Below are positions 18,808-55,630 of a DNA stretch of 58,525 nt, in pieces (the stretch's first letter is position 1; each line of letters opens with the position of its first letter). Where the stretch lies: positions 1 to 58,525 of the forward strand of contig PUMQ01000004.1 of assembly GCA_003551435.1 (NCBI GenBank), in the 5' to 3' direction. A program made the position numbers and the translations under genes. The notes under the pieces are model-generated. The model did not search any database, was not told the origin of the DNA, and worked only from the letters and a program-made list of their open reading frames with translations. The DNA is from Candidatus Nealsonbacteria bacterium (GTDB lineage: Bacteria > Patescibacteriota > Minisyncoccia > Minisyncoccales > PWPS01).

Positions 18808-19033
18808 GTTCTTTAAAATCCCTTCGGGTTATCTGCGAGTGGCTTATTGTTTTTCTGCACGTATCTTTTGATCTTGCAGTTACAAAATCCCTCCTTTTTT
18901 TATTGGGAAGGAAGAGCGATTTATTCAATCTTCCTTTCCTTAAGCCGGTGTCCGTAACGGATACTTTCCGTCTTTCGGCCTGTAATCAGGTTTGAAGGCC
19001 GGAGCTCGCAGGTAGCCCAAAGGGATTTTTATT
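18808..19033 (+). ncRNA. Candidate structured ncRNA (~225 nt), family unassigned
   Basis: It has its own promoter. A 22-bp closing helix forms between 18815-18822/19022-19029 (8 bp) and 18826-18839/19005-19018 (14 bp). That helix includes two G.U pairs that would be C.A mismatches on the - strand. Internal helices: 18841-46/18941-46, 18855-59/18875-79, 18906-14/18930-39, 18948-64 and 18977-92. The 3' end is a U-run (19026-19035). Confidence 0.55.
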
Positions 19034-19690
19034 TTACTCGGGCTGGTTTTTTTCTTCCTCCAGATTAATTGTTTTTGCCGATATCTCCGAAAGAACAGCA
19101 TTTTTCAACTCTTCGGCCGCTTTCTCTTCAACTTTTTTTGTACTTGCCGGCAAACTTTTTAAAACAAAGTCTATCGCTTTTTCGTTTTTTCCTTTCTTTT
19201 CCGCTCTCTTACGGATTCCCACCCGCAATCGGACGAACTTTTTCGTTCTCAGCGATTTTATAACCGAAGCTACTCCCTTGTGCCCGGCGCTTCCCCGGGA
19301 AAAAGAAAAACGCAAAGTACCCAAAAAAAGATCACTGTCGTCGTGAACCAAAATCAATCTCTCAGGAGGAAGGCAAAACCTTTCCAGCGCCTTTCTTATC
19401 GCTTCCCCGGAAAGATTCATAAAAGTTAAAGGAAGAAGAAGGGCTACTCTTTTTCCTTCTATCTCTCCCTTTGAAACAAAAGATCTCAGGGTGTTGTCTT
19501 TAGAAAAGTCGGGAAGGGAAGATATCTCTCTTAGGCGCGAAACGATACGAAAACCGGCGTTGTGAGCCGTTTTTTTATAATCTTCTCCCGGGTTTCCAAG
19601 ACCGACAACAAGGTAATCAACGTTAGGCTCCTTCTTTTCTTCTCTTTTCTTAAATAAATTTCTAAACATGGAAAACAACTTGAAATTCAT
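19034..19690 (-). CDS. pth: Peptidyl-tRNA hydrolase
   Basis: YLVVGLGNPGEDYKKTAHNAGF, VHDD.DL..G..R, GSAGHKG. The start is ATG 19690 or 19669; the track's 19783 start overlaps lepB. Confidence 0.85.
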   Translation of the reverse strand: MNFKLFSMFRNLFKKREEKKEPNVDYLVVGLGNPGEDYKKTAHNAGFRIVSRLREISSLPDFSKDNTLRSFVSKGEIEGKRVALLLPLTFMNLSGEAIRKALERFCLPPERLILVHDDSDLFLGTLRFSFSRGSAGHKGVASVIKSLRTKKFVRLRVGIRKRAEKKGKNEKAIDFVLKSLPASTKKVEEKAAEELKNAVLSEISAKTINLEEEKNQPE

Positions 19691-19791
19691 TATACCTTTT
19701 TTAAAAGTAAATCGCAAAAAAGAGGACCGGACTTTTACAGGGTTTTGTAGGGATTTGATTCTTTTGTTAAAATTTGCTAACATTGCGGCGT

Positions 19792-20331
19792 ATGAGAACG
19801 ATGCTCAGCCATTTTTGGGAAGTAATGAAGGTGGTTGTTATTGCTCTGCTTATCGTAATACCGATAAGGATTTTTTTGTTCCAGCCGTTTATTGTCCGCG
19901 GGTCTTCCATGGAACCCAGCTTTCATGAATCCGATTACCTCATCGTGGACCAGCTGTCTTACCGTTTTCGGGATCCGGAAAGAGGGGAAGTGGTTGTTTT
20001 TCAGTATCCGCACGATCCTTTCAAAAGGCACATTAAGAGAATTATCGGTCTTCCCGGAGAAGAGCTTGTTGTTCAAGAAGAGAAGATCCTTATTACAATT
20101 GACGGAGAGGAAACAGTTTTAAGCGAAGACTATCTTCCAAGACCGATTCCGATGGGACGGGAAGAGGTTTCTCTCGGAGAAGGAGAATATTTTGTAATGG
20201 GAGATAACAGGGGCGCTTCTTTTGATTCGCGAAACTGGGGTCCTCTTCCGGAAGAAAATATTGTAGGAAAAGTGCTTATCCGAATTTCTCCTTTTAGCGC
20301 TTTTGCGTTTGTGGAAGCGCCGGATTACTGA
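19792..20331 (+). CDS. lepB: Signal peptidase I
   Basis: GSSMEPSF (catalytic Ser box), KRIIGLPGE (Lys box), GDNRGASFDSRNWG. ATG 19792 is preferred over TTG 19774. Confidence 0.9.
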   Translation: MRTMLSHFWEVMKVVVIALLIVIPIRIFLFQPFIVRGSSMEPSFHESDYLIVDQLSYRFRDPERGEVVVFQYPHDPFKRHIKRIIGLPGEELVVQEEKILITIDGEETVLSEDYLPRPIPMGREEVSLGEGEYFVMGDNRGASFDSRNWGPLPEENIVGKVLIRISPFSAFAFVEAPDY

Positions 20332-20453
20332 CAACCAATGACAAATGACAAATGACAAATGACAAATGACAAATGACCAATGACAAATGACCGTTGATAA
20401 GGAAGTCATAAGTCATAAGTTATAAGTCATGGGTCATAGGTCATAAGCCATAA
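20329..20453. repeat. Composite heptanucleotide-repeat element: 9 x (A/C)AATGAC, 13-nt spacer, 7 x GTCATAR
   Basis: The left array (20329-20391) begins with the lepB TGA stop codon itself. The right array (20405-20453) ends 6 nt before the hisS ATG. The arrays are inverted relative to each other, matching at 5 of 7 positions per unit. Confidence 0.9.
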
Positions 20454-20459
20454 ACATTT

Positions 20460-21734
20460 ATGCCAAAGAAACTTCAAAGTCCCAGCGGAATGCACGACAT
20501 TTTCGGGAGCCAGTACGATTACTTCCAAAAAGTAAGAGAGGTTGTTTTTAAAAATGCTGAAATTTACGGATTTCAAGGCATTGAAACACCGGTTATCGAA
20601 GATACGGAAATATTTACCCGCGGAACGGGAAAATTTACCGATATTGTGGAAAAAGAGATGTACACTTTTAAAACCAAGGGAGGGGATAGAGTTTCTTTAA
20701 GGCCGGAGGGAACTCCTCCTATTATGCGTGCTTTCATCCAGCACGGGCTTTACACCAAGCCCCAGCCGGTGAAGTTTTTTTACTTTGCTCCCTACTTCCG
20801 CTACGAAAGGCCGCAGGCGGGCAGGTATCGTCAGTTTTGGCAGTTTGGATTTGAGACAATCGGGAGAGGAGGGCCGGTAGTCGATACCCAGGTGATTGTA
20901 TTGGTTTACAACATACTAAAGGAGCTGGGAATAAAAAACGTGGTAACCGAGATAAACAGCATGGGAGACGAGAAGTGCCGGGAAGAGTATAAAAAAGCCC
21001 TTAAGAAACATTTAAAAAAGCAGAGTTCCCGTCTTTGTACTGACTGTAAAAGAAGAGTGGAAAAGAATCCTCTTCGGGCGCTGGACTGTAAGAAGTGTCT
21101 GGAAGTTAAGGCGGAAGCCCCACAGATTTTAGACCACATCTGCAAGAAGTGCTGCGAAGACTTCAGGAGAGTTTTGGAATTTTTAGAGGAAGTAGAAATC
21201 CCTTACGACTTAAACCCTTTTCTTGTCAGAGGATTAGACTACTATACGGGAGTGGTTTATGAGTTTTTTGCCCGTTCTAAAAAAAGCGGTGAAGAGGAGT
21301 TTCTCGCTCTCGGAGGAGGGGGAAGGTATGACGGGTTGAGTGCCGCCCTTGGTGGAGAAGAAAGACCGGCTACGGGAGCGGCTATGGGAGTGGAGAGAAT
21401 AGTTCTTCTGATGAAGAAAAACGGAGAGGTTTATGAGAAAGAAAAACCTCGGGTTTTTATCGCTCAGCTGGGAGATCTGGCAAAAAAGAAGTCGCTCAAG
21501 CTCTTTGAAGAGCTAAAGAAGGCCAATATTCCGGTTGCGGAAGCCTTCGGGCAGGATTCTTTGAAAAACCAAATGAGTAGAGCAGCCAAACTGGAAGCGG
21601 ATATAGCTATTATTATCGGCAAGGAGGAGGCGGCCGAAGACAAAGTTATTTTACGCGATATGGATTCCGGAGGGCAGGAGAAAGTAAAAACAAGCGAAAT
21701 AATAAAAGAAGTGAAGAAAAAACTCAAAGAATAA
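20460..21734 (+). CDS. hisS: Histidyl-tRNA synthetase
   Basis: Class II motifs: G..D.., FRYERPQAGRYRQFWQ.G, GGGGRYDGL, and a C-terminal anticodon-binding domain. Confidence 0.95.
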   Translation: MPKKLQSPSGMHDIFGSQYDYFQKVREVVFKNAEIYGFQGIETPVIEDTEIFTRGTGKFTDIVEKEMYTFKTKGGDRVSLRPEGTPPIMRAFIQHGLYTKPQPVKFFYFAPYFRYERPQAGRYRQFWQFGFETIGRGGPVVDTQVIVLVYNILKELGIKNVVTEINSMGDEKCREEYKKALKKHLKKQSSRLCTDCKRRVEKNPLRALDCKKCLEVKAEAPQILDHICKKCCEDFRRVLEFLEEVEIPYDLNPFLVRGLDYYTGVVYEFFARSKKSGEEEFLALGGGGRYDGLSAALGGEERPATGAAMGVERIVLLMKKNGEVYEKEKPRVFIAQLGDLAKKKSLKLFEELKKANIPVAEAFGQDSLKNQMSRAAKLEADIAIIIGKEEAAEDKVILRDMDSGGQEKVKTSEIIKEVKKKLKE

Positions 21735-21737
21735 AAA

Positions 21738-21780
21738 GTGACAAATGACAACTATAATGATCGTAGATTATAGGTCATAA
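21738..21780. repeat. Miniature version of the heptamer element (GTGACAA ATGACAA ... GTCATAA) with an embedded TATAAT
   Basis: Two left units (21738-21751), TATAAT at 21753-21758, and one right unit (21774-21780), between hisS and the HIT gene. Confidence 0.6.
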
Positions 21781-21791
21781 ACCAATTCATC

Positions 21792-22109
21792 ATGGACTGT
21801 TTATTCTGTAAAATAATAAAAAAGGAGATTCCTTCAAAAACGGTTCTTGAAAATGAGAGCGTGATTGTTTTTGAAGATATTAATCCCAAGATGCCGGTTC
21901 ACTTGCTTGTCGTTCCTAAAAAACACATTGCCTCGGTAAATGAAATAAAAGAGGAAGACAAGGAACTTATCGGAGAGCTTTTTCTTACCGCCAAACAGGC
22001 GGCGGAAAAGGTTGGAGTAAAAGACAAAGGATACAAGTTGTCCGTTCATGTTGGAGAAGGAGGAGGGCAGGAAATATTCCACCTCCACATTCACCTTCTT
22101 GGAGGATAA
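21792..22109 (+). CDS. HIT (histidine triad) family protein
   Basis: CLFCKI.., and the histidine triad HLHIHLLGG at the C-terminus. Confidence 0.9.
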   Translation: MDCLFCKIIKKEIPSKTVLENESVIVFEDINPKMPVHLLVVPKKHIASVNEIKEEDKELIGELFLTAKQAAEKVGVKDKGYKLSVHVGEGGGQEIFHLHIHLLGG

Positions 22110-22127
22110 AAATAACAAGTAATCATT

Positions 22128-22346
22128 ATGCCTTTAGAAGTAACAAGAAAAGAAAAAGAAAACAACAGCAGCCTGGTGTACCGTTTTACCCGCTCGGTAA
22201 TCCAGAGCGGAATTATCAGAGAAGCGCGTTCCCGCCGGTTTTTCCAGCGGCCAATGAGTAAAACGGCAAAAAAGCGCGCCGCTTTAAGGAAAATAAGAGC
22301 CAAGGAAGAGTACGAGAAAAAGCTTAAAGCGGGACAGATAAAATAA
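22128..22346 (+). CDS. rpsU: 30S ribosomal protein S21
   Basis: 72 aa, basic: VYRFTRSVIQSGIIREARSRRFFQRP..KKRAALRK resembles S21 (..RRFKR...K.G...E.RRR..YEKP). Confidence 0.75.
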   Translation: MPLEVTRKEKENNSSLVYRFTRSVIQSGIIREARSRRFFQRPMSKTAKKRAALRKIRAKEEYEKKLKAGQIK

Positions 22347-22757
22347 ATGGCGCCGGAGGTAAATAATTTAACCCGTTTTTCCGTCAATGAAAGATTGATT
22401 AGCAAAGCGGCTGAAATTGTTTTAAAAAAAGAGGGGGCGGAAGGTGAAGTCTCGGTGGCATTGGTAGGAGAAAAGAGAATAAGAGAAGCAAATAGAATTT
22501 ACCGCAAAAAAGACAAGGTAACGGACGTTCTTTCTTTTTTTTACAGCGAGAAAGGGTTTTTGGGAGAAGTGGTTCTTTGTCCTTTGAAGATTAAGAAAAA
22601 CTCCAAAAAGGGCGGTTTTACAAAAGAGATTTGTCGTGTTACTATACACGGAGTGCTTCATCTTCTGGGATACGAAGATACTACAAAAAAAAGTAAAGAG
22701 GAAATGGAAGAGAAAACAAACCGTTATTTGAAAATAATTTATAAAGAGGTAAAATAG
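22347..22757 (+). CDS. ybeY: rRNA maturation endoribonuclease YbeY
   Basis: TDVLSF, and the HGVLHLLGYED metal-binding motif near the C-terminus. Starts directly at the rpsU stop. Confidence 0.85.
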   Translation: MAPEVNNLTRFSVNERLISKAAEIVLKKEGAEGEVSVALVGEKRIREANRIYRKKDKVTDVLSFFYSEKGFLGEVVLCPLKIKKNSKKGGFTKEICRVTIHGVLHLLGYEDTTKKSKEEMEEKTNRYLKIIYKEVK

Positions 22758-47250: not shown

Positions 47251-47258
47251 AGATATTT

Positions 47259-47311
47259 TTGAAATTTGAAACTTGAAATCGTTTTAAAATTTGAAATTTA
47301 AAATTTAAAAT
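47259..47311. repeat. AT-rich heptanucleotide tandem repeats (TTGAAAT/TTAAAAT, 3 + 4 units)
   Basis: TTGAAAT TTGAAAC TTGAAAT at 47259-79, then TTAAAAT TTGAAAT TTAAAAT TTAAAAT at 47284-311. Confidence 0.8.
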
Positions 47312-47322
47312 TGCCCCGAGGT

Positions 47323-52873: not shown

Positions 52874-53707
52874 ATGGCAGAAAAAATTAAAGCGGGGATT
52901 GCCGGCACGGGAATGGTCGGCGGAGCTCTGGAGAAGTACCTTGAAAAAAGAGGGGGCGTTGAAATTTTTGTTTACGACAAAGGGCAAAAAAGAGGCTCCA
53001 TGGAGGAGGTAAACAAAGCGGATACTGTTTTTATTTGCGTTCCAACCCCATACCAAGAAGAAGCAGGGGGATTTGATTTAAGTTATGTGGAAGAAACGTG
53101 CCAGAACCTGAAAGGTGAAAAAACGGTAGTTATCAAATCTACCGTTTTGCCGGGAACCACGGAAATTTTGCAAAAAAAATATCCCGCCCACAGGTTTCTG
53201 TTTAATCCCGAGTTTCTGGTGGAAGCCAAAGCTCAAGAGACAATGGAAAAGCCCGACAGGCAGATTATGGGATATACCGAAAAAAGCCTAGAGGAAGCGG
53301 AAAAAGTAATGGAAATTCTCCCGGACGCTCCTTATAAAAAGACAATGCCCGCTACCGAGGCGGAAATGGTTAAGTATTTCGGAAACAATTTTCTTTCCGT
53401 AAAGGTAATTTTTGGAAATTTAATGTACGATATCTGCCAAAACTTGGGCATTGATTACGATATGGTCAGAGAAGCGGCTTCCAAAGACCCGCGAGTAGGC
53501 CCGAGTCACCTTGAAATTTTCCACGGAGGGTATAAAGGATATGGCGGGAAATGCCTTCCGAAAGACACCAAAGCGCTTATCCAGCTTGCCAAAACCGTGG
53601 GGGCGGACGCTGGTCTTTTGGAAAAAGTGGAAGAAATAAATAACCGCCTTATGAAAGAACAGGGGATAGATGATCCGGAAAAATACTCGGAAAGAAACCC
53701 CTATTAA
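52874..53707 (+). CDS. UDP-glucose/GDP-mannose dehydrogenase-family protein lacking the C-terminal UDP-binding domain
   Basis: Rossmann fold IAGTGMVGGAL, VPTP, STVLPGTT, NPEFLVEAKA, and the catalytic-Cys motif GGKCLPKD. Only ~45 aa follow the Cys, and the stop abuts a heptamer repeat element. Confidence 0.7.
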   Translation: MAEKIKAGIAGTGMVGGALEKYLEKRGGVEIFVYDKGQKRGSMEEVNKADTVFICVPTPYQEEAGGFDLSYVEETCQNLKGEKTVVIKSTVLPGTTEILQKKYPAHRFLFNPEFLVEAKAQETMEKPDRQIMGYTEKSLEEAEKVMEILPDAPYKKTMPATEAEMVKYFGNNFLSVKVIFGNLMYDICQNLGIDYDMVREAASKDPRVGPSHLEIFHGGYKGYGGKCLPKDTKALIQLAKTVGADAGLLEKVEEINNRLMKEQGIDDPEKYSERNPY

Positions 53708-53841
53708 CTGACAAATAACCAATGACAAATGACAAATGACAATTTTATCTAACAATCAAATGTCAAGTGTTAAATGTTAAATGTTGTTAGTAGTCATAAG
53801 TCATGGGTCATAAGTCATAGGTCATAGGTCATAAGCCATAT
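53706..53841. repeat. Composite heptanucleotide-repeat element: 5 x (A/C)AATGAC-type units, 52-nt spacer containing GTTAAAT x2, 7 x GTCATAR
   Basis: The left array (53706-53740) overlaps the TAA stop. The middle has GTTAAAT GTTAAAT GTTGTTA (53769-89). The right array (53793-53841) runs into the ATG at 53840. The right arrays here and at 20405-20453 both have 7 units ending GTCATAA GCCATA. Confidence 0.9.
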
Positions 53842-55630
53842 GTCAGATATTCTTAAAAAACTACTGGAGATTCTTCCTTCCAAAGACAAGGCGAAGCTGG
53901 GAATTCTTGCCGTTATGATGCTTGTGGGAGGGTTTCTGGAGGTTTTCAGTATCGGGATTATTGCCGGATTTGTGGCTGTGGTTGCCGATCCGGGCATTCT
54001 TTTTGATATAGAGCCCCTAAAGAGAGTGCTTAACTTTCTTGGTATTGAAACTTCAAGAGACATTCTTTTTTACGGAGCGATTTTTCTGATTATCGTTTTT
54101 TTGCTTAAAAACGCCTATATCGTTTTTTATAAATACGTTAAAGCGCGTTTCATCTATCACCGCTACAAATCAATTTCAAGGAAGCTCTTCGGAATTTATA
54201 TGAACGTTCCTTACTCTTTCCATTTAAGAAGAAACAGCGCCGATCTTACCCGGAATGTGGTCACCGAAGCAAAAGCGCTGGCTACCAATGTTATGCTTCC
54301 TGTTTTGGAAATTGCCACCGAAACGGTGATGATTTTGGGGGTAATTACTCTTCTTTTTGTGGTTGAGCCTACGGTTACTTTGGTAACTATTTTTCTTTTG
54401 GGGGGAGTGAGCGCTCTTTTCTTAAAAGTGGTGAGAGGACGGACCAAAAAGCACGGAGAAAGGGCGCTTGAAGAGAGGGCGAGGATAATAAAAACGGTAA
54501 ACGAGGGAGTGGGAGGATTTAAAGACGCTACCGTAATGAACAGACAGAACTGGTTTACAAAGAGATTTGAAAAAAGCGTGGATGCTCTCTCTAGAGCGGA
54601 GATATTCAGGCAGGCGGTCAAGGCAACGGTACGCCCGGTAATAGAAACTATCGCCGTTTTGGGGGTTCTTCTTATCGCCCTTCTTCTTTTGAACAAAGGG
54701 TACTCTATCGGAGCTTTGGCTTCCGTTCTTGCTTTGTTTGTTCTCTCTATTCAACGCCTTCTTCCCGCTATAAACAGCATTGTCGGCAACTACAACAGTT
54801 TGCGCTACCACGCTTATGCCCTACAGCCGATATACGAGGATATGACCGCTCTTAAAGAGTATGAAGAAAAAAAGAGAGAGTTTGTTAAAGATAAAATGCC
54901 CCTAAAAGAGAGCATAGAAGTTAGGAAAGTTACCTTTGTTTACCCGGAAACAAAAGAGGAAGTGCTAAAAGACGTCTCTCTTTCTGTTAAAAAGGGTTCT
55001 GCTATCGGGCTTGTGGGAGCTACCGGTTCAGGGAAAACGACCCTTGTTGACCTGATTTTAGGGCTTTTAGAGCCTACCAAGGGAGAGGTTTTAGTTGACG
55101 GGAAGGATATAAAAGAAAGTGTTAACGAGTGGCAGGAAAATATCGGCTATATCCCCCAGTTTATCTATCTTTCCGACGACAGTATTCGCAACAACATTGC
55201 TTTTGGCATTGATGAAGAAAAAATAGACGAAAAAAGAATAAAAGAGGCGGTAAAAGCGGCCCGGCTTGACGAGTTTGTGAAGAGTTTGCCCGAAGGGCTT
55301 AGCACTTTCATAGGAGAAAGGGGAATTCGCTTGAGTGGAGGCCAAAGACAGAGAATAGGAATTGCCCGAGCTCTTTACAACGATCCGGAAGTGCTTGTTA
55401 TGGACGAAGCGACCTCCTCTTTGGACAATGTAACAGAAAAGTTCGTCATAGAGGCGATAGAACGGCTCAAAAAAGAGCGTACCCTTATTATCATCGCCCA
55501 CCGGCTTACCACCGTTAAGAACTGTGATACCCTTTATCTTATAAAAAAAGGTAAAATAGCCGCTCAAGGGAGCTACGAAAAGCTTTTAGAAAACAAAGAC
55601 TTCAAAGAAATGACCGACTCGGGGAAATAG
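53840..55630 (+). CDS. ABC exporter, fused permease and ATPase (MsbA-like)
   Basis: Six-TM N-terminal domain, Walker A GATGSGKTT, signature LSGGQRQRIGIARAL, Walker B VLVMDEATSSLD. Confidence 0.9.
   Translation: MSDILKKLLEILPSKDKAKLGILAVMMLVGGFLEVFSIGIIAGFVAVVADPGILFDIEPLKRVLNFLGIETSRDILFYGAIFLIIVFLLKNAYIVFYKYVKARFIYHRYKSISRKLFGIYMNVPYSFHLRRNSADLTRNVVTEAKALATNVMLPVLEIATETVMILGVITLLFVVEPTVTLVTIFLLGGVSALFLKVVRGRTKKHGERALEERARIIKTVNEGVGGFKDATVMNRQNWFTKRFEKSVDALSRAEIFRQAVKATVRPVIETIAVLGVLLIALLLLNKGYSIGALASVLALFVLSIQRLLPAINSIVGNYNSLRYHAYALQPIYEDMTALKEYEEKKREFVKDKMPLKESIEVRKVTFVYPETKEEVLKDVSLSVKKGSAIGLVGATGSGKTTLVDLILGLLEPTKGEVLVDGKDIKESVNEWQENIGYIPQFIYLSDDSIRNNIAFGIDEEKIDEKRIKEAVKAARLDEFVKSLPEGLSTFIGERGIRLSGGQRQRIGIARALYNDPEVLVMDEATSSLDNVTEKFVIEAIERLKKERTLIIIAHRLTTVKNCDTLYLIKKGKIAAQGSYEKLLENKDFKEMTDSGK

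Follow-up and report, generated by a model that had tools for sequence, protein, structure and literature searches.

Structure of the lepB-hisS intergenic region

This study concerns an array of inverted heptanucleotide repeats that fills the space between lepB and hisS in a Candidatus Nealsonbacteria bacterium (assembly GCA_003551435.1, contig PUMQ01000004.1; positions 1 to 58,525 of the forward strand, the whole of which is referred to as the window). The upstream gene lepB, taken from the open reading frame (ORF) list at 19774..20331 on the + strand, encodes signal peptidase I (Peptidase_S26, E = 5e-45), and the downstream cistron hisS (20460..21734, + strand) encodes histidyl-tRNA synthetase (tRNA-synt_His, E = 5e-44). 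The parts of the element lying between them, all read on the + strand, begin with a left terminus (20326..20335) composed of a degenerate unit, TACTGAC, plus AAC; this unit contains the TGA stop codon of lepB (20329-20331) and is 3 nucleotides (nt) out of register with the array, such that the step from it to the regular left array is 10 nt rather than 7. The left arm (20336..20391) comprises eight tandem (A/C)AATGAC units in the order CAATGAC, five AAATGAC, CAATGAC, and AAATGAC (Tandem Repeats Finder period 7, 7.9 copies, score 103). It is followed by a 13-nt non-repeat core, CGTTGATAAGGAA (20392..20404; family consensus CGKTRATAARGAA), which constitutes the hairpin loop, and by the right arm (20405..20453), which comprises seven tandem GTCATAR units (two GTCATAA, GTTATAA, GTCATGG, GTCATAG, GTCATAA, and a decayed last unit, GCCATAA; period 7, 7.3 copies, score 67). 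A 6-nt A/T-rich remnant leader, ACATTT (20454..20459), precedes the hisS ATG.

A first-pass annotation of this locus, made from the sequence alone, had counted nine left-arm units, of which eight are regular and the ninth is the degenerate, off-register unit. The rest of its anatomy (a 13-nt spacer, seven GTCATAR units, 6 nt to the ATG, and complementarity at 5 of 7 unit positions, namely between the cores ATGAC and GTCAT) is borne out. The array is real and far beyond chance expectation: the window contains 13 occurrences of the 14-mer AATGACAAATGACA when up to 2 mismatches are allowed, where 0.42 would be expected, and none of 100 shuffles reached 13.

The element carries few recognizable signals. 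Neither a sigma-70-type promoter (-35/-10 with a 16-18-nt spacer) nor an intrinsic terminator (GC-rich stem followed by a T run) was detected on the sense strand of 20326-20459; -35-like TGACA and -10-like CATAAG motifs are never 16-18 nt apart because both keep the 7-nt period. A scan of 19000-22500 against Rfam (E ≤ 1) yielded no relevant match, with only a chance small nucleolar RNA elsewhere (E = 0.26).

A dispersed repeat family

The source assembly comprises 599 kb in 21 contigs (~41% G+C, about 91% coding). A genome-wide census, as proposed in the first-pass annotation, combined with alignment, identified about 23 copies of the element totalling 1.9 kb, or 0.3% of the genome, so the array does recur beyond this locus. 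Copies are located almost exclusively in intergenic regions and share a common polarity, 5'-(M AATGAC)n, core, (GTCATAR)n-3'. At least 10 dispersed copies carry the core CGKTRATAARGAA in little-altered form (contigs C10, C11, C15 (three copies), C6, C9, C19 (two copies), and C20), while three copies form a second subfamily with a longer core containing TCAAATG/TTAAATG heptamers. Units at the edges of the arrays are decayed (A[CT]TGAC and ATAAC on the left; AAGTCAA and AAGCCAT on the right). Across more than 150 units, the dinucleotide preceding ATGAC is AA, CA, or TA, and that following GTCAT is AA or AG; the constancy of these differences indicates that the two arms are distinct words rather than mirror copies of one another.

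Two further copies lie within the window. The first (21736..21785, + strand), between hisS and the HIT gene, is a miniature consisting of GTGAC, ATGAC, a 24-nt centre, and then GGTCATAAACC, and its fold is weak (z = -1.5). The second (53705..53842, + strand) is a full copy of the composite subfamily that begins at the TAA stop codon of a gene of the UDP-glucose dehydrogenase family and reaches the ATG (53840) of an ABC exporter, with a left arm at 53709-53742, inner TCAAATG/TTAAATG heptamers at 53743-53791, and a right arm at 53792-53839; the exporter ATG falls within the last unit. Its composite core recurs at C15:42311 and C4:8597.

Gain of the element in this lineage

Left-arm and right-arm arrays (the latter allowing for up to 1 mismatch) were absent from 40 relatives, 13 of which are congeneric species. 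The lepB-hisS-HIT gene order is conserved, and because the lepB-hisS gap is only 5-20 nt in five congeners (G013, G010, G009, G001, and G015), the element is a lineage-specific gain. The hisS-HIT gap is similarly tight (0-10 nt in six congeners), such that a comparison with related genomes, which the first-pass annotation had put forward as a check, reveals unfilled sites at both junctions in five to six species. In the element-free congeners lepB terminates with TAA or TAG, and here with the TGA of the element's first unit, while the hisS start, ATGCCNAAAAA, is conserved in 13 congeners. Among the metagenomes of the Joint Genome Institute (JGI), the core-plus-unit pattern had 0 matches, and the closest hisS relatives were at most 57% identical.

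Other DNA has also been accommodated at these sites. G008 (L012) and G005 (L015) carry non-heptamer inserts of ~50-150 nt at the lepB-hisS and hisS-HIT junctions, and such closely spaced operon junctions thus appear to receive lineage-specific DNA repeatedly. Contig C18, which is flanked by 120-nt inverted repeats, was considered as an insertion sequence and rejected, given that it contains ordinary genes and no transposase. Two unrelated dispersed repeats of ~120 nt, 99-100% identical between copies, end many of the contigs and evidently break the assembly; one is found at the 5' ends of C1, C6, C13, and C20 and the 3' end of C3, and the other at the 5' ends of C2, C7, and C18 and the 3' ends of C15 and C18 (3 kb).

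Placement, orientation, and predicted folding

Most copies span the distance from a stop codon to a start codon. An ATG-initiated ORF starts -1 to +14 nt past the right arm in 18 of 23 copies, and an upstream stop codon lies within 12 nt of the left end in 15-16 copies, with left gaps ranging from 0 to 309 nt. Twenty-one of the 23 copies are sense with respect to adjacent genes (two-sided binomial p about 7e-5), the only exceptions being C13:3171-3252 and C16:8688-8741. The antisense copy on C13 sits at the opposite end of a gene that also bears a sense copy (C13:1187-1262). Replication-linked orientation was considered and rejected, as three copies (C20:17703, C21:10490, and C19:29619) follow their local genes against both the regional gene-strand majority and GC skew, though a skew-based test of orientation is weak because GC skew in this genome tracks the coding strand.

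The absence of a Shine-Dalgarno (SD) sequence before hisS, to which the first-pass annotation had drawn attention, holds true and is not peculiar to this junction, since the genome as a whole shows no SD enrichment and hisS lacks an SD sequence in the element-free congeners too. Upstream of ~600 ORFs no SD enrichment was detected (17.7% vs 20% background, using crude gene starts). The lack of an SD sequence in every species, together with this lack of enrichment, identifies its absence before hisS as the ancestral norm. The regions upstream of the ~600 ORFs are A/T-rich rather than SD-like, and a clear 16S 3' end (GGATCACCTCCTT) was not found in the assembly. The SD-like loop TAAGGAAGT and AGGT in right-arm units were discounted as ribosome-binding signals on account of the lack of SD enrichment in the genome and their incorrect spacing to the ATG. 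A ribosome relay was likewise rejected: ATGA overlaps in the left arm give rise to 5-codon mini-ORFs, while the right arm has no start codons and the relay therefore cannot reach hisS.

The long fold-back foreseen in the first-pass annotation was recovered by folding of the sense strand, in which the complementary ends are predicted to form a stem around the 13-nt loop, made up of 5-base-pair (bp) helices separated by 2x2 A/A internal loops (-34.9 kcal/mol, z = -4.7). The antisense strand folds more strongly (-41.7 kcal/mol). The sense ensemble contains many alternative registers and its centroid is empty, and because the tandem arms can pair in many registers, arm-arm covariation is not meaningful.

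Read on the opposite strand, the left arm becomes (GTCATTK)n, which is free of stop codons and yields spurious antisense ORFs ('VICHLSFVICH...'), which in the window are found on the minus strand at 20119-20409, 20294-20416, and 53420-53755 and could be annotated by gene callers. The arrays also provide stop and start codons of neighbouring genes, which is relevant to the annotation of metagenome-assembled genomes of Patescibacteria.

Array length variation and other heptamer families

Arm length varies from 1 to 19 units across copies, and a marked imbalance between the two arms is frequent (3 vs 19, 4 vs 14). In the longest array, GTCATAA and GTCATAG alternate in runs, as expected from slippage involving multiple units. 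Neither this genome nor any of 20 relatives has MutS (PF00488), and the lineage appears to be without MutS-dependent mismatch repair; together with the range in arm length, this fits growth of the arms by slippage.

Heptanucleotide periodicity extends beyond this one family, and period 7 is the dominant period among tandem repeats of the genome. Of the period-7 arrays with a score of at least 40, 43 of 53 are intergenic, whereas arrays with periods of 6, 8, 9, and 12 (8, 4, 9, and 34 arrays, respectively) are almost all coding. Other heptamer families, again almost all intergenic, include (TTTGAAA)8, (CTTTTCG)16, an AAAAGCG/CGCTTTT inverted pair, and AAATTTA, located at 47258-47312 of the window and at C6:54968-55082, C3:10091-10131, C13:8890-9017, C12:2484-2550, and C19:36421-36511. 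Inverted pairs of other words (CTTTTCG/AAAAGCG, AAATTTA/TTTGAAA, and TTGACC/GTCAAA) are also present. The distribution within the genus is patchy: different heptamer pairs were encountered in G012, G006, G004, and G011, some of them at the same hisS junction, while heptamer arrays were absent in the stretches surveyed of G013 (56 kb) and G005 (60 kb).

PF05635 genes flanked by arrays in congeners

Genes encoding PF05635 proteins were detected in 17 of 41 relatives vs 1 of 14 control genomes. Nine of the 10 PF05635 loci inspected have an array with a 7-10-nt period within about 200 nt, and in five of the 10 (G006 (L246), G012 (L252), G001 (L251), G025 (L254), and G026 (L247)) the gene is bracketed by reverse-complementary arrays; two further loci are cut by contig ends. 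Together with G002 (L249), these relatives illustrate that PF05635 genes are common in this order and typically lie between inverted arrays of 7-10-nt period. In G006, the PF05635 ATG lies inside the last (ATTTGAC)n unit, (GTCAAAG)n follows its stop codon, and gene-less pairs of the same words are found next door. In G012, the cassette arms AATTTTC/GAAAATT are the words of the gene-less hairpin upstream of hisS. The polarity of left arm, gene, and right arm identifies these as genes within a loop rather than ordinary genes between two separate elements.

PF05635 proteins form four-helix-bundle pentamers whose function is not known and which are related to the Avd protein of diversity-generating retroelements (PMC10053308). 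They are also encoded by intervening sequences (IVS) of 23S ribosomal RNA (rRNA) in Coxiella and Leptospira, which are stem-bounded selfish inserts that carry an S23p/PF05635 ORF and are excised by RNase III (PMC4990558). The genome studied here encodes RNase III (C6:14710-15102).

Origin of the element and alternative explanations

We propose that what separates lepB from hisS is one gene-less copy of an insertion element of the hairpin type, dispersed through the genome and armed with tandem arrays of heptanucleotides, and consider the probability of this reading to be roughly 0.6. The element would have entered the 5-20-nt lepB-hisS junction as a unit, its TGA replacing the original stop codon, after which the arms may have grown and shrunk by replication slippage, aided by the lack of MutS. 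It would be transcribed within the lepB-hisS messenger RNA (mRNA), where it is predicted to fold into a mismatch-studded hairpin that places the lepB stop near the hisS start. Because this fold-back would bring stop and start close together, expression of hisS, which here is SD-independent, would not be disrupted. The co-transcribed element is probably neutral or selfish. The sense bias is most likely a product of selection against antisense copies, in which the 3' arm would read (GUCAUUK)n, form the more stable fold, be U-rich and free of stop codons, and place UUG beside the start codon; the bias can be accounted for without invoking a dedicated function. Among the roles listed in the first-pass annotation, a slippage-prone tract (1-19 units per arm and no MutS) and an insertion resembling a miniature inverted-repeat transposable element (MITE; empty sites in congeners and a conserved non-repeat core) fit best.

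The element may further descend from cassettes of the PF05635 type. Since the same architecture, built from other words, holds a PF05635 gene in its loop in congeners, the copies described here are most readily understood as miniaturized, orphaned versions of such cassettes. As far as sequence comparison within the genus can tell, the data support an association between PF05635 and the arrays, not a mechanism. A broader version of this proposal is correspondingly tentative and, on balance, we doubt it: heptamer-armed hairpins, including the cyanobacterial short tandemly repeated repetitive (STRR) sequences, would be the arms of a selfish cassette that occurs across phyla and encodes a PF05635 protein, the pentamer of which would recognise or propagate 7-nt arrays, and the present genome, having no PF05635, would hold fully orphaned copies that persist because their sense fold-back joins the stop and start codons of SD-independent, coupled genes.

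Several observations weigh against an insertion element, or against its descent from PF05635 cassettes. No target-site duplication (TSD) is visible when filled and empty sites are compared, although relatives are only about 75% identical, and the array edges decay gradually, such that no sharp terminal inverted repeat (TIR) is definable. The Y1/RAYT (PF01797) and TnpB (PF07282) families are absent from the genome, other transposase families not having been searched. In relatives, PF05635 is the only gene encountered between arms of this kind, and it is not known as a transposase. With no transposase-like gene, TSD, or sharp TIR, the case for mobility comes from dispersal and empty sites only. 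A simple hairpin does not explain the unequal arms, which could instead point to a separate role for the start-proximal GUCAUAR array. A six-frame search of the genome returned no match to PF05635, and the loop is 13 nt; the link to cassettes comes from congeners with different heptamer words. In addition, G011 has heptamer arrays and no PF05635, while G013, which has no heptamer arrays in the 56 kb mentioned above, has a weak PF05635 match. Homology of the composite core to G006 elements was considered and rejected, as similarity is confined to the level of short repeat words (E about 5e-4). Finally, the consistent sense orientation and start-adjacent placement fit a functional RNA element equally well.

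Such an intercistronic RNA element, whether the transcribed hairpin or the start-proximal GUCAUAR array, could act in mRNA processing or stability (e.g. RNase III cleavage of the sort seen in 23S rRNA IVS, giving rise to a near-leaderless hisS mRNA), could couple termination to re-initiation by keeping stop and start in proximity, or could provide a docking site for a protein that binds RNA where SD sequences are not used. The 21 of 23 copies in sense orientation, which track local transcription over regional strand bias, and the position of the right arm, 0-14 nt from an ATG in 18 of 23 copies while the left gap varies freely, are what would be expected of it, as are the lack of SD enrichment and the presence of an RNase III gene. 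Analogous placement is seen elsewhere: (ATGACMA)n arrays in other phyla lie in sense within 40 nt upstream of an ATG-initiated ORF in 55 of 127 cases vs 6 of 127 in antisense, and TAACTGA heptamers of Beggiatoaceae, Cyanobacteria, and Bacteroidetes, for which translational regulation has been proposed, are positioned in the same manner (MacGregor 2015, PMC4679880). We nonetheless regard a functional RNA element as unlikely. Sister species express the same essential genes from element-free junctions of 5-20 nt, and the element is therefore not needed for their expression; downstream genes (hisS, HIT, the ABC exporter, and others) share no functional theme; and unit number and arm balance vary widely. 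The sense fold is weaker than the antisense fold and distributed over many registers, in which covariation between the arms is not scorable, and 5-bp helices interrupted by 2x2 A/A loops are poor substrates for RNase III.

If the arrays were instead purely local microsatellites, each would have arisen from a chance TGAC/GTCA seed, for example in the context of a stop codon, with no dispersal involved. According to the summary of Mrazek (2007) given in PMC4679880, long simple repeats of prokaryotes are most often heptanucleotide repeats, which are put down to slippage of the polymerase, and a lineage without MutS in which several unrelated heptamer words coexist in one genome would be a favourable setting. 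At least 10 copies, however, share the 13-nt core and polarity, and three share the longer core, which independent slippage would not recreate; moreover, the two positions at which the arm words differ are constant over more than 150 units. Local origin is thus improbable, and the conserved core shows that the arrays are carried as components of an element.

A role at the level of DNA, either as a series of binding sites for a nucleoid, replication, or regulatory protein or as a phase-variable contingency tract that changes spacing, is more improbable still. It would accommodate the TGAC core common to three sub-families (AATGAC, TTGACC, and GTCAAAT) and the variation of unit position 1 (A/C/T) while the other six positions remain fixed, both here and in cyanobacteria. 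Against this, orientation tracks transcription, which is not required of a duplex DNA site; the 7-bp period sets successive sites on different faces of the helix; no promoter lies within the element and no candidate binding protein was identified; and on/off switching makes no sense for housekeeping genes such as hisS. Both roles had been among those listed in the first-pass annotation, and nothing points to either a switch or a DNA-binding array.

That the element is an assembly artefact of collapsed or chimeric repeat reads is scarcely credible, as unique sequence flanks more than 20 copies on either side and independently assembled congeners show related architectures, and at stake is in any case the unit count only, not the existence of the element. 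Public runs holding the organism amount to one DNA run (a 2012 salt-lake metagenome, contigs only) and 0 RNA runs. Independent Logan unitigs of the source run extend from lepB into the left array (19900-20366) and from the left array across the loop and right array to hisS (20348-20900), and the element is not a chimera because these tie the left arm to lepB and, through the loop and right arm, to hisS. Both unitigs break and meet among identical AAATGAC units, where 35 nt of identical left-array sequence exceed the Logan 31-mers, such that the left-unit count depends on the source assembly alone; similarly, the 19-unit array at C15:28426 exceeds the read length typical of 2012. Unit counts from short-read assemblies are therefore uncertain. 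The one joint observed, 20364 to 20403, was considered as a strain variant and most likely represents another copy (C20).

The locus amounts to a natural experiment of unusual clarity in a minimal genome, with dated insertions at tight, conserved, essential gene junctions. Its main value lies in providing a clean case both for the PF05635 cassette hypothesis, given that the same architecture carries a PF05635 gene in sister species, and for the strong link between orientation and transcription.

Comparison with known repeat systems

Heptanucleotide arrays, referred to as STRR or long simple sequence repeats (LSSR), have been known since 1990 and are used for strain typing, while their origin and function are unexplained. 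STRR2, the heptamer TT(G/T)GTCA of heterocystous cyanobacteria, was reportedly described by Mazel et al. in that year. The first-pass annotation had drawn this parallel correctly: TGAC(A/C)AA is the reverse complement of TT(G/T)GTCA, and its arrays are abundant in Nostoc and Calothrix. Words of the STRR type occur in intergenic regions of Nostoc PCC 7120 (PMC2408588). In a scan restricted to one genome per species, arrays of at least 3.7 tandem ATGACMA units were detected at more than 120 loci; cyanobacteria such as Nostoc and Calothrix account for most of these, and the remainder are in Planctomycetota, Bacteroidota, Acidobacteriota, Chloroflexota, and Myxococcota. The ATG of the gene is often inside the last (ATGACMA)n unit in these other phyla (L035-L154). 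STRR2 and the left arm are thus an identical word, including the A/C (and T) variation at one position, and both systems consist of tandem, intergenic heptamers present in many copies per genome, with no established function and with a sense bias just upstream of start codons. The element differs in that each full copy adds a second word, GTCATAR, around a conserved core, whereas arrays in other phyla are nearly always single and direct, with a downstream inverted GTCAT array in 2 of 129. The hosts differ as well, a Patescibacteria genome of 0.6 Mb on the one hand and cyanobacteria on the other, and the comparison is compatible with both ancestry and convergence.

The TAACTGA repeats resemble the element in their 7-nt period, intergenic location, sense orientation, and termination a few nt before SD-less starts, as well as in their sporadic, lineage-specific distribution, the same junction being short and repeat-free in relatives (PMC4679880). 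Their insertions and deletions occur in 7-nt steps that are attributed to slippage, as with the element (PMC4679880). Unlike the element, TAACTGA sets are direct repeats of 2-6 units (with one indirect set) and have neither a conserved core nor a paired inverted arm.

Co-transcribed intergenic hairpin repeats of the MITE kind, or of the repetitive extragenic palindromic (REP) kind, include REP sequences, bacterial interspersed mosaic elements (BIME), and enterobacterial repetitive intergenic consensus (ERIC) sequences of enterobacteria, and the Correia elements, or Neisseria miniature insertion sequences (NEMIS), of Neisseria. Like these, for which Correia elements as described in PMC4853749 serve as the comparison, the element is small, non-coding, dispersed, located between operon genes, and predicted to form hairpins; repeats of this kind are transcribed and can affect mRNA processing or stability. 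The element departs from them in having no defined TIR, TSD, or cognate transposase or RAYT, and in that its arms are slippage-variable microsatellites.

The IVS of 23S rRNA share with the element complementary ends that form a stem, and they are regarded as selfish and are transcribed within host RNA. The element, by comparison, has no ORF and resides in mRNA spacers rather than in rRNA helix 45, and the 28-bp near-perfect IVS stem is replaced by arms of tandem heptamers with regular 2-nt mismatches. The heptamer element is accordingly an inverted, core-bearing, patescibacterial form of a known but unexplained kind of repeat, and this form is new. If true, the link to PF05635 would tie together STRR-type repeats, 23S rRNA intervening sequences, and stand-alone Avd-like proteins, and would make their relationship testable.

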